Source: Nitrosopumilus sp. (GTDB lineage Archaea; Thermoproteota; Nitrososphaeria; Nitrososphaerales; Nitrosopumilaceae). Taken from it: a DNA stretch of 64,000 bases. The notes beneath the pieces are model-generated. The model made no database searches. It saw only the letters and a list, made by a program, of their open reading frames with translations, and was not told the DNA's origin. The translations under genes were made by a program, and so were the position numbers. Shown here piece by piece: positions 43,221-47,814 of this stretch. The stretch covers positions 1,216,001-1,280,000 of the forward strand of contig OZ240211.1 of assembly GCA_965197525.1 (NCBI GenBank), written 5' to 3'. Positions within the stretch are counted from its first letter, which is position 1; every line of letters starts with the position of its first letter.

Positions 43221-43625
43221 ATGGTGAAGAAGAAGAGCGATATTCCTGATTGGGTTTCTGATGAGATTCAAAATGCAAAATTTCAAAAACCAAAGGAGAT
43301 GAAAAAGTCGGGATATATTTTAGAGCTGTATAATGATGATAACAAAATTGATGTCCAGCTGTATGACGGTGTCGAAGACGGACGGCATATAGTTACAATG
43401 GATTTGACAGAATCAATAAAGATCGACGAGTTGGAGAGGGGAGTAGTCTATGAATTTACATTTGATCAGCACAAGGCCCCGCTAAGTAAAAAAGTATCAG
43501 AGTTCTTGGCAAAAGAAAAAGAGATAGAGATGGACGCGATTTATCAGTTTGAATTAAAATCACTTGAATTGTTGGATGTAGAAGCTGATGGCGATAATGC
43601 ATCTGACGGTAATGATGACGAGTAA
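43221..43625 (+). CDS. Hypothetical acidic protein
   Basis: Clean 134-aa ORF co-oriented with neighbours. Confidence 0.7.
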   Translation: MVKKKSDIPDWVSDEIQNAKFQKPKEMKKSGYILELYNDDNKIDVQLYDGVEDGRHIVTMDLTESIKIDELERGVVYEFTFDQHKAPLSKKVSEFLAKEKEIEMDAIYQFELKSLELLDVEADGDNASDGNDDE

Positions 43626-43627
43626 GA

Positions 43628-44431
43628 CTAGTCTTCTTTGTTAGAGTTTTTCAATTGCTTGCCAAAAGATGCACCCAAGATGGGATTAATGAGATACGGA
43701 AATGTGTGTTTTAACCATACAGCGGCCCTGACAACGGATGGGACTATGATCTCAAGTCTTGGTGAACCAGCGGCCCGGATGATTGCTTTGGCTACAGTTC
43801 TAGAACTAAGAGATGTAGGAGAATATTTTGGCATCTTTGCAAACGAGGGATGTTCAAAAAAATTTGTTCGAACCATTATTGGGCTAACGACTGTAATCCC
43901 AACTTTAGTTCCCTTTAATTCGTGTTTGAGGCCTTCTGAGAACCCCAGCATTGCAAACTTTGATGCACAATAAGAAGCAATACCAGGTAATCCAAAGCTT
44001 GCTGCAACTGACGCAACGTTAACTATGTGACCTGAATCTCTTTTGAGCATGAATGGAAGAATATTCTTGGTACAGTATACCATTCCAAAATAATTCGTAT
44101 CCATCTGTGATTCTATCTCATCAATGGTAAGATCAGATATAGAACCGTATATTGCAAAACCTGCATTATTTACCAAAACATCAACAGAGTCAAATTTCTC
44201 AAATACTGTATCTGTCATTGCTTTTACTTGATCACGTTTCGAGACATCACACGGACATGCCAGCACAGTTACACCAAATTTTGATAGTTCTTTTGCAAGT
44301 AGATTTAGTTTATCCTCTCCCCGCGCCACAAGAACAAGATTACTTCCTTGCTTTGCGAATTCGACTGCGGTCTCTTTGCCGATTCCAGAGGATGCACCAG
44401 TAATCAGGACTAGCTTGTCTTTAAAATCCAT
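43628..44431 (-). CDS. SDR family oxidoreductase
   Basis: ITGASSGIG, NNAG, YCASK catalytic YxxxK; start placed at ATG 44431. Confidence 0.95.
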   Translation of the reverse strand: MDFKDKLVLITGASSGIGKETAVEFAKQGSNLVLVARGEDKLNLLAKELSKFGVTVLACPCDVSKRDQVKAMTDTVFEKFDSVDVLVNNAGFAIYGSISDLTIDEIESQMDTNYFGMVYCTKNILPFMLKRDSGHIVNVASVAASFGLPGIASYCASKFAMLGFSEGLKHELKGTKVGITVVSPIMVRTNFFEHPSFAKMPKYSPTSLSSRTVAKAIIRAAGSPRLEIIVPSVVRAAVWLKHTFPYLINPILGASFGKQLKNSNKED

Positions 44432-44500
44432 ACAACTGAGGAATAGTTTTTGTGATAAAGCAGTTTCGCTAGATAGATGCTTGTTTTTGTATAAAATAAC

Positions 44501-44615
44501 TATGCTGTTCAATATTTGGGACTTTTCAACTGCCTGTTAAGTTAGGGTTTTTTTATCAAGTTAGGGATTTTTATGCTGTTCAATCTCAGGCGTTTTTCAA
44601 TTACCTGTTAAGTTA
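44501..44615. repeat. Two 44-bp degenerate direct repeats at the IS110 distal end
   Basis: TATGCTGTTCAAT-N9-TTTTCAA-N3-CCTGTTAAGTTA at 44501 and 44572 (36/44 identical). Confidence 0.85.
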
Positions 44616-44619
44616 TCTA

Positions 44620-44850
44620 TGTGCGCTCTTTTTAAAGGTTTTCTGAGTTTGTACGTGTTTGAGTACAGCATCAGCTAGGAACAAGGTTTCACTTAGAAGA
44701 TGGTCGGATACATATCTATACGAGCTCTGTCACTCAGCACCATTCTTCATCCATTCATTAGGGTTAATCGCAGTTAGAATCCGAGCATGAAAACTCACAC
44801 TTAACATCGCGCAAATCCCTAACCATAATCTCCTGACATTCAGTCATATG
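44620..44850 (-). ncRNA. Candidate IS110 bridge/seek RNA
   Basis: Non-coding region downstream of the transposase with two large stem-loops (44757-44824, 44696-44748) and segments matching the element end. Confidence 0.5.
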
Positions 44851-44854
44851 CAAT

Positions 44855-46177
44855 TCATTTTTTTGCAAGTTGTTTCACACTCTTTACACTTTTCTTACTC
44901 TTTACACTTTTCTTATCCTTTATATTCTTCAAATGCTTTGCTCTTGCATTTCTACATGATTCTGTACGTTGTCTTTGGCATTCTGCAAAGGTAATTCGTT
45001 TTTTTAGCATCCAAAATATAATACGCAACATCTTAGCCGCCGTTGCAACGATGGCCTTGGCTGTTCCTCGCTTTCTTGCAACACGTTTGTAAAACTCTGT
45101 CAAGACAGTCGTCTCTTTTGCATGTATCCTGTGTGCAAGTGCAGCCTCTGTGAGAACCCATCGCACAGTAGCGTTACCGGCATGTGTTATCCTTCCATGA
45201 TGTGTTATTCCTGCAGAGTTTCTCACTGATGGAGCCAATCCAATGTATGATACTAGCTTGTCAGGATCCTCGAATCTGCTGATATCATCTATCTCTGATG
45301 CGATGGCAAGTGCTGTAAACTTGCCTACTCCGGGTATTGACATGAGAATTTGTACATATTCGTTGTTTCGTACCATGTCATGTATCTTAAGATTGGCTCT
45401 GCCTATGCGCTCATCAAAGGATTTTATGCATTCCAAATACTCTTCTATCCTCCAATCCTTCAGTCTGCGCAACTCTCTGTTAAATGCAGGTGTAAATGTG
45501 GGTCCTGGAATCTTGATTGACTCTTGGAGCAGTATGCCATGGATCATGTTCTTTATCTGAGTTCTGTTCTGCACCATTCTTGTGCGAAAGCGCACCACCC
45601 GTTTCTCCTCGACGGTTTTTGGAGGCGAGACATATGATGCATGGATGTAACCTCCTCTGAGCAGGTCTGCTAGTGCATGCGCATCAAACCTGTCAGTCTT
45701 CTTTTTGGATTTTGCTATGAGGCGTGTACGATAGGGATTTGACAGGGTCACATCCAGTCCCAGATCCACTGCAAGTTTTTTGTATATACCATACCACACA
45801 GATGACGATTCCAATACATATTTGGCATTTTTTGGAAATGCTGAAAACTCGTACTCAATTATCTTAAAGTCATTTTCAATCCTCTCGTTCATCAAAAGAT
45901 TTCCATTCTGATCTACTGCCGCAACCTGAAGAAATTTTTTGTGCAGATCCAACCCAAAGAACACTTTTTGTTCTTCTTTTGTTTTTTTGATTCTTGTAGT
46001 GGAAGATCTTGTTGCAGCCATCACCTGCACGCCCGATCTCTGTTTCATAACAGTATTATTTTTGAGGGTAATCTGTTTCTTGGCATTTCCTGCCTTTTTT
46101 ACCTTCTTTGCACTAAGTATCTTGGAATCTGCGGGTTTATGCTTTGTACCATCTAAATTTCTTTGTCTGTTTCGCAC
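44855..46177 (-). CDS. IS110 family transposase/recombinase
   Basis: DEDD RuvC domain (GLDLHK, VLESS, KTDRFDA), LMSIPGVG, YIGLAPSVRNSAG with catalytic Ser; start uncertain. Confidence 0.95.
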   Translation of the reverse strand: MRNRQRNLDGTKHKPADSKILSAKKVKKAGNAKKQITLKNNTVMKQRSGVQVMAATRSSTTRIKKTKEEQKVFFGLDLHKKFLQVAAVDQNGNLLMNERIENDFKIIEYEFSAFPKNAKYVLESSSVWYGIYKKLAVDLGLDVTLSNPYRTRLIAKSKKKTDRFDAHALADLLRGGYIHASYVSPPKTVEEKRVVRFRTRMVQNRTQIKNMIHGILLQESIKIPGPTFTPAFNRELRRLKDWRIEEYLECIKSFDERIGRANLKIHDMVRNNEYVQILMSIPGVGKFTALAIASEIDDISRFEDPDKLVSYIGLAPSVRNSAGITHHGRITHAGNATVRWVLTEAALAHRIHAKETTVLTEFYKRVARKRGTAKAIVATAAKMLRIIFWMLKKRITFAECQRQRTESCRNARAKHLKNIKDKKSVKSKKSVKSVKQLAKK

Positions 46178-46676
46178 ATATGGTTAGGTATTTTTCAATG
46201 AATATTAATTTTAGTGGTTACAGTCTTGTAAACTTGAACATTCTTGAATGTTTGCAAATCTGTAACAACTTAAACACAAAACCAACCTAATTTAACAGCT
46301 AGTTGAAAACAACTAAAGATTTAACAGTGTAGAAAATCATACTACTGTGGTGATATCTACCACACATATCCAACTCAATAACAAGTACATATACATACGT
46401 TCTTTTTAATATTGGGCGAAGATGTCGAAAACAAAAGATCTAAGATTTGCTCAAAATGAAATCTTGTTTGGAATTCGCATGTGAACGTATATTGAATTTA
46501 ATAGATTGTTACAGGATTTGAACGAAAGAATGTTTGATTAAAAAATTGAAAGTGGGTTAATACTCAACTATGCATGTTTATAATGAATTGTTCAATCTGC
46601 ATTGACTGTCAAACTGGATTGAGCATCAATTTGGATTGACTGTTTGTTTAACTACATAACTCTGAACAGAATAGTA

Positions 46677-47814
46677 ATGACGAGCAAATACATTATTTCT
46701 GGAGCTGCATTGCTTGCAGTAGTCGTACCGGCTTCTGCCATCAACACTGCGTTTGCAACATCAGAACTAACTGACGCCGAACTACAAGACATGCTGGGAA
46801 ATGAAATACATGAGCTTGAGTGGATCAACGAAAACCTGTCCAAACTAGATCCCAATGACGAGGTAACTGCGCTGATCGAAGCCAACAACAACAGGATTGA
46901 GGATCTCTGAAAAATACTATGCACTTGCACCAAAGAAAGAGCTTGCAGATATTAGTGACGAGAAAAAAATTGAGATTGAGATACTGATGTGGAAGATGGC
47001 AGCAACAAACCATCTGTTCCTATCTATGGGACTCGATCCATACACGGGGGAGCTGGATATACTTCTGGATGTTTTAAAGGCACCCAATATAGATGAAATA
47101 AATGAGGAACTTCGGATTATCGCTGGTGATACAGTCCAGATTAACGTTGTTTATGGACAGAACAATGCCAGATTCCAAGGTTCCTGCAACAGCCAGACCG
47201 GATACTGTCCCACGATAATCGGGGCTTCCAAGGGTGAACCTGACAACGTAGACGATATTGACTGTACAATCAATATCGTAGCCACAAAAGGATCCGGGTC
47301 TTCTCAAGTGAATGGTGTTGTGATTCCACACCACTGCAATATCAATCACGACGACTATTACCAGTACAGCAAGGGATCCTCCTCACATCTTGTGGGATCA
47401 CACAACACGGACGGTGGGTGGTGGTGCGACTGTGACTTTGTCGAGATCGACACAAGATCGTCAAGCACCGGTAAAGTCAATGACGCTGGAAGCGACATAT
47501 CAGTAAGTTATGGAGATCTGTCAGTGGATGACTCTGTGTACATGATTGGACAGCATTCAGGCAAAGATTATGGGATAATTGCAAAGACGAACCAATGGGT
47601 ATGGATCAATGGCAACGGGTATACAGATGTATACTTTGTTAAAAATATTGATTTCTCCACTGGAGACAGCGGTGCACCCATCATCAGGGATTCGGATGAA
47701 ATGTACGGCGGAATGAACATAGGAGTCGGAACAGAACACATTGACGGTCAGTCTATCACTGTCAACTATGTGCACGACTGGACGTTCCTCAAGCACAAAT
47801 TGGGTCTTAACTAA
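46677..47814 (+). pseudogene. Frameshifted secreted trypsin-like (S1) serine protease
   Basis: Signal peptide ORF stops at 46910; overlapping frame continues with PHHC, DFVEID and GDSGAP triad motifs. Confidence 0.75.

Follow-up and report, generated by a model that had tools for sequence, protein, structure and literature searches.

To our knowledge, bridge (seek) RNAs have been demonstrated to be functional for bacterial elements only. Insertion sequences with the IS1111 layout have a short left end, a long right end, a sub-terminal repeat of 7-17 bp and an RNA encoded in the right end (PMC11208160, PMC11187229), and bridge RNAs have been predicted in 93% of the IS1111 elements held in ISfinder (Durrant et al., PMC11208160). 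Part of the literature cited in PMC11208160 describes the targeting of dispersed repeats as typical of the group. Archaeal recombinases appear in the tables of Durrant et al. (PMC11208160), where Archaea are named in 27 rows; a single one of these refers to Thaumarchaeota, and its protein is a different one. In the literature searched we found no description of a bridge RNA in Nitrosopumilaceae; archaeal IS110 recombinases are counted in surveys, and descriptions of their RNAs were not found there.

Here we analyse an insertion sequence from a Nitrosopumilaceae genome that consists of a single contig of 2.21 Mb, in a window of 64 kb (the window being the whole stretch of DNA that was analysed). 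Judged from sequence comparison, the element is very probably a Nitrosopumilaceae member of the IS110 family with an IS1111 layout, and its right end would encode a bridge (seek) RNA. A first-pass annotation of the same DNA had proposed such an RNA, and the proposal is borne out by a two-loop anatomy, by helices that covary and by loop segments that covary with flanks and with element ends. W denotes the window's own copy of the element, and L-numbers (L002, L003, L011 and so on) denote other copies or loci.

Element, recombinase and target repeat

The ends of the element were fixed by aligning four full copies from the one genome, W and three others (Table 1). The left end opens with TAACCATATGTG at 46186 and the right end closes with CACATAGATA at 44614, followed by AC in the W subfamily. 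TA stands at both junctions in every copy compared, and TAAC in the W subfamily. Terminal inverted repeats are absent from the tips, as is a target duplication; an 8-bp sub-terminal inverted repeat (left TATGTGCG, right CGCACATA) lies a few nucleotides inside each tip, and its ATGTG/CACAT is retained in relatives. The left end measures 9 nt ahead of the GTG. The non-coding stretch that the first-pass annotation had placed after the recombinase is indeed present, running for about 241 nt from the stop codon (44855) to the element's end at 44614/44612. These features give the element an IS1111-type layout, ISEc11 and IS1111 being likened to it by their published description.

Table 1. Features of the element and its surroundings, in positions of the window
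Feature	Position	Strand	Remark
Whole insertion sequence	44614..46186	-	TA core counted at both ends; from the alignment of four same-genome copies
Right boundary, alternative	44612		TAAC common to both junctions in the W subfamily
IS110-family DEDD recombinase ORF, 440 aa	44855..46177	-	GTG start within the left sub-terminal repeat
Small hairpin 5' of the RNA core	44849-44831	-	
Candidate bridge/seek RNA core, about 135 nt	44696..44830	-	Target-binding loop, then donor-binding loop
Putative right-target guide, 5' segment of target loop (AUGUUAAGUG)	44798..44807	-	
Putative left-target guide, 3' segment of target loop (GAUUCUAACU)	44772..44781	-	Left flank + UA core + AC
Putative right-donor guide, 5' segment of donor loop (AAGAAUGGUGC)	44737..44747	-	
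Putative left-donor guide, 3' segment of donor loop (UAUAGAUAUG)	44711..44720	-	
TATA-like box in right end (TTTAAAAA)	44629..44636	-	Putative function
Repeat unit interrupted by the element	44572..44615	+	82% identical direct repeat of 44501-44544
Intact neighbouring target-motif copy	44501..44547	+	Unoccupied site TGTTAAGTTAG at 44535-44545

The recombinase matches two Pfam families, PF01548 (DEDD_Tnp_IS110, RuvC-like; E 6.6e-20) and PF02371 (Transposase_20; E 1.3e-24), as well as the NCBIfam family NF033542 ('IS110 family RNA-guided transposase'), for which its score of 226.9 bits clears the cut-off of 140. The catalytic D-E-D-D residues and the serine of the Tnp domain match at the level of motifs, in GLD77, LE123, KTD162xxD165A and NS321AG. 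The C-terminal domain can be aligned to the solved recombinases of ISCro4 and IS621, and the Ser region to ISCro4, with a similarity to the ISCro4/IS621 protein that is weak (E about 1e-5) and confined to this domain. Relatives are present in 35 of 301 Nitrosopumilaceae genomes, and in nearly all intact ones the GTG frame is open through the full recombinase, which the overlapping ATG frame never is. In the W subfamily the recombinase is extended at its N-terminus by about 70 aa rich in Lys and Arg, and it carries a KSVKS repeat at its C-terminus (45970-46177 and 44855-44930, minus strand); relatives of 365-375 aa have neither.

The repeat that W interrupts, CTGTTAAGTTAGG, is a dispersed one, and W occupies a single unit of it. 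Removing the element in silico restores CCTGTTAAGTTAGG, like the neighbouring copy. The 11-mer TGTTAAGTTAG has three occurrences in the genome, and the wider motif CTGTWAARTTAGG has 12, against none for a reversed control. This motif often stands in short intergenic arrays with a period of 38-39 or 71 nt, adjoining unrelated genes; it may be a regulatory site, a REP-like sequence or a MITE end. The first-pass annotation had suggested empty target sites in related genomes as a check, which did not succeed as such: no orthologous empty site was found in 34 genomes of the genus, where similarity ends with the neighbouring dehydrogenase gene (about 76% identity), and the intact neighbouring repeat was used instead.

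Places of the target motif include 44501-44615 and 46286-46298 in the window and loci L066-L072. Two inverted arrays of the motif lie 17.6 kb apart; the stretch between them was considered as a mobile element, an idea that was not upheld. A role of the motif as promoter of a paralogous gene family was likewise given up, the genes that adjoin the arrays being unrelated and without a Pfam match.

A predicted two-loop RNA in the right end

A covariance model (R1) was built from the copies of the host genome. Such a search of homologous 3' regions had been named by the first-pass annotation as a way of checking its reading, and it found the RNA at 41 places downstream of related recombinases in Nitrosopumilaceae, with a score of 160.6 bits for the RNA core in the window. 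In a sample of 150 genomes from across the phylum, R1 matched inside Nitrosopumilaceae only, and nowhere in the 33 other families sampled. In the target loop, two stems (outer and inner) lead to an internal loop capped by a hairpin; a short linker follows, and 3' of it the donor loop consists of a stem and an internal loop that is again capped by a hairpin.

Conservation of this fold is evident from compensatory changes, which occur at 19 of the 27 base pairs among 33 distinct sequences. Pairing is kept in 92.7% of cells, a share that falls to 81.5% in shuffled controls and to 32-44% after sliding of the partners, and the observed covariation score was reached by none of 500 shuffles. The alignment used (A4) was fitted to the covariance model and to that extent favours structure; independent folds based on MAFFT agree with the main helices.

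It could be supposed that the tail is nothing but a common 3' UTR or terminator and that it matches its flanks by chance. A scan of 43500-47500 against Rfam 15 (E<=10) returned no family match save two chance snoRNA matches elsewhere in the stretch, and the thermodynamic fold of the whole tail was no better than that of shuffles (z = -0.25), so that stability alone is no evidence; an 8-mer match, moreover, is expected about twice per window. All three results would suit an ordinary tail. However, the structure covaries, the anatomy is explicable without a T-run terminator, and the same register of matches recurs with different sequences at about 30 insertions (p<=5e-5). We thus regard chance matching by an ordinary tail as extremely improbable, and return to a guide RNA as the preferred reading.

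The helices drawn by the first-pass annotation survive in part. In its first stem-loop, the outer stem, CGCG/UGCG and GAG/CUC are conserved and covary, and the nested GUUA/UAAC is not conserved: the full helix occurs in one of the 33 distinct sequences, W's own. Both segments thus lie in a loop, as guides should, which disposes of the annotation's own caveat that they might merely pair with each other. For the donor loop two pairings compete, and the second stem that it drew, GAAGA-AUGGU/ACCAU-CUUC, corresponds to one of them.

The donor loop is followed immediately on its 3' side by a segment (44695-44703, minus strand) that can pair with the 5' strand of that loop, including the right-donor guide. 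The resulting distal duplex is stronger than the proximal stem in most relatives, and compensatory changes occur in both partners. This distal duplex may represent an alternative or masking fold.

A further string, GTTAGGGATTT, was correctly located by the first-pass annotation at 44560-44570 (plus strand) and 44823-44813 (minus strand). The outer stem of the target loop and the target repeat are here identical over 11 nt, a match with an expectation of about 0.03 per window. The suggestion that GUUAGGGAUUU is a guide was abandoned, because the sequence belongs to a conserved outer stem that is retained in relatives with other targets.

Putative guide segments, flanks and element ends

In the terms used for IS621, the 5' segments of the two loops are read as the right guides (top strand) and the 3' segments as the left guides (bottom strand). 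The string TGTTAAGT does occur twice on the plus strand (44535-44542, 44606-44613) and on the minus strand (44806-44799), and CTAACT at 44777-44772 (minus strand) and AGTTAG at 44540-44545 were also placed correctly. Taken alone, such string matches are within chance, an 8-mer being expected about twice per 64 kb. They are significant because of their position, 44606-44613 being the right junction, and because of their covariation with flanks in relatives. The match to the element's own end was half right: 44606-44613 is the real right junction, and 44535-44545 belongs to the intact neighbouring copy of the target motif. Across the junctions compared, members of the family have a TA core in common, which in the W subfamily extends to TAAC; the AGT core that had been proposed does not hold as such.

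In W, UGUUAAGU and the right junction ACTTAACA (44613-44606) are reverse complements of each other at 8/8 positions. The right-target segment changes together with the flank in the three other copies of the same genome and across about 30 insertions; examples are L002 (guide UGUAAAGU, right flank ACTTTACA), L003 (guide AUAAAAGG, right flank CCTTTTAT) and L011 (guide GUCCAUA, right flank TA-TGGAC). L002 sits in a variant repeat, CTGTAAAGT; its guide differs from that of W by one base, and the target repeats do likewise.

The first-pass annotation had let its reading depend on whether the loops covary with their sites, and they do. Over 32 distinct pairs of guide and insertion, the mean exact run of the right-target guide is 5.4 nt against its cognate right flank and 2.96 nt against non-cognate ones (permutation p<=5e-5), an agreement that extends to other genera. 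For the left-target guide the means are 3.0 and 2.17 (p<=5e-5). The target loop matches right flanks strongly and left flanks less so; on the left, some families match well (for example, UUAUG, GGAAC, ACGCA and GUCAA) and several mismatches are U-G or G-T wobbles. The left-target guide of W matches over C-TAAC plus one U-G wobble only, and some insertions of relatives have a guide match of just 3-4 nt.

The donor loop corresponds in the same way to the ends of the element. AUGGU in the right-donor guide is the reverse complement of ACCAT, with which the left end starts after its TA (TA-ACCAT), and AUAGAUA in the left-donor guide equals the right end ATAGA plus TA. Additionally, the left-donor guide tracks variants of the right end (ATGGATA in at least 10 families, ATGAGTA in L026, ATAGGTA in L032 and L064), and the right-donor guide tracks the left end (ACTAT in L011 and L049, ATC in L029, G.CAT in L025). 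The ends vary little, with about four right-end and about four left-end states, so that covariation of the donor loop rests on few independent changes. The UA core is included in the left-target and left-donor guides and in the right-target guide of most relatives, not in that of W, L002 or L003; in the right-donor guide it is not consistent. A handshake-like reading of the post-core bases in the donor loop gave mixed results, with a match in about 7 of 18, and was dropped.

By definition, any guide has the sequence of a short piece of flank or end DNA, and DNA repeats would look alike. The loop segments might then act as DNA, either as protein-binding sites or as copies of ends or targets, with the repeats recognised by the recombinase; that the tail and the target repeat also share an 11-nt identity that is no guide would accord with such a role. 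However, five helices around the segments keep their pairing through compensatory changes, which is expected of a folded RNA and not of duplex DNA sites, and within each loop the two segments address opposite strands and come together at the core, as they do in the solved IS621 complexes (PMC11208160, PMC11208158). We consider recognition as DNA highly improbable, and guide segments within a bridge RNA remain the preferred reading.

Movement, expression and known systems

From work on IS621 and ISEc11, we expect that the DEDD recombinase would bind the bridge RNA and that the element would excise as a circle with its ends joined at TA, giving the predicted junction ...CACATAGA-TA(AC)-CATATGTG... 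In the complex of recombinase and RNA, the donor loop would pair with the circle junction while the target loop paired with a site that matches it, and strands would be exchanged at the TA core without a target duplication, again as the IS621 and ISEc11 work suggests.

The RNA gene could be real and the window copy nonetheless a fossil that no longer moves. Besides W, the genome carries two close copies, one of them frameshifted, and one copy at about 70% identity, together with four further sites that hold only fragments of the right end or of the RNA gene. As the close copies are only 87-89% identical, that is, 11-13% different, movement in the host genome was not recent, and the poor match of W's left guide points the same way. 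On the other side, the W reading frame is intact over 440 aa with its catalytic motifs present, all helices, both donor guides and the right-target guide (8/8) are intact, and unoccupied perfect sites are at hand. In other genomes, relatives of the element also have copies that are 99% identical, which indicates that the family is active. A fossil is thus an unlikely description of W, if one to be taken seriously, and we continue to read W as an element with a bridge RNA.

Several of the other same-genome copies have features of their own. L003 (1501-3053) is broken by its frameshift, leaving an open frame of 207 aa from the GTG, and the match of its left flank to its left guide is lost. Three solo right-end fragments (L004 1501-1684, L005 1501-1686 and L006 1501-1691) have a common internal start, the target-loop hairpin; L004 and L006 additionally have about 155 nt of unrelated sequence in common, which makes a composite repeat of about 345 bp. 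At L007 the RNA gene stands alone, without a recombinase gene and without a right end.

The right end carries a TATA-like box whose first T is 23 nt away from the element's end and, after joining of the ends, 30 nt upstream of the GTG (46177). A spacing of 30 nt between box and start is the expectation for a leaderless archaeal transcript. All 27 distinct right ends, G+C-rich ones included, have only A or T at positions -22 to -16, and the position of the GTG start is fixed in 24 relatives and that of the TATA-like box in 27. We found no separate TATA-like box ahead of the RNA, which begins at the stop codon; the RNA is thus probably made as the 3' part of the recombinase transcript. We suggest that a single leaderless transcript of recombinase and RNA would be driven by the right-end box, which would reach its place 30 nt upstream of the GTG only in the circle and would make transcription circle-dependent.

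These elements provide a natural data set of about 30 insertions in which guides and sites change together, and W and L002 offer a case of natural retargeting by one base inside a single genome. Compact pairs of recombinase and RNA from mesophilic marine archaea may also join the pool of programmable recombinases, and the switching-on of an element under archaeal promoter rules becomes a testable idea. The known mechanism is left unchanged by the finding.

The nearest named relatives are ISHvo9 and ISHvo10 of Haloferax volcanii, at 34-37% identity. They are archaeal IS110-family elements as well, with a two-loop RNA that is weakly similar (model R2, 7-14 bits) and a 3' donor segment, CAUAGGUGAA, that equals the right end of the element. 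For ISHvo10 on H. volcanii pHV4 (L081 715-878, 2124-2140), the target segments match the conserved flanks CGTGCT..ATACAG. Unlike in W, the RNA of both elements lies upstream of the gene, in the left end, and core and ends differ. ISfinder and Durrant et al. (PMC11208160) alike class the two elements with IS1111; the latter authors do so while listing ISHvo9 as 'LE'. With the RNA in the right end in Nitrosopumilaceae and in the left end in ISHvo9/10, the RNA stands at different ends within one archaeal clade, which, if true, would mean that the recombination core has moved round the circle more than once. We put forward tentatively, leaning slightly against it, an archaeal re-wiring that would combine such repeated movement of the core with a leaderless transcript of recombinase and RNA made from the circle only.

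Like IS621 and ISCro4 (PMC11208160, PMC11208158), the element has a two-loop RNA in which the target loop precedes the donor loop, one segment per loop that reads the bottom strand on the left and one that reads the top strand on the right, and a dinucleotide core common to donor and target. In IS621, however, the RNA lies upstream, in the left end, and the core is CT, whereas here the RNA lies in the right end and the core is TA; the right-target guide of the W subfamily also skips the core, unlike those of IS621/ISCro4.

With the IS1111 group as represented by ISEc11 (PMC11187229, PMC11208160), the element shares its DEDD recombinase, its unequal ends (the left very short, the right long), a sub-terminal inverted repeat, which here measures 8 bp, the placing of the RNA after the gene, guides that match the flanks, and site-specific insertion into a repeated sequence without target duplication. 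It differs from such elements in its archaeal host, in a GTG start 10 nt into the element and within the left repeat, in a complete TATA-like box in the right end in place of a junction promoter split into -35 and -10, and in an RNA without an Rfam family match. On this comparison of sequence and layout, we conclude that the element is a real but expected archaeal member of the known IS110/IS1111 guide-RNA system.
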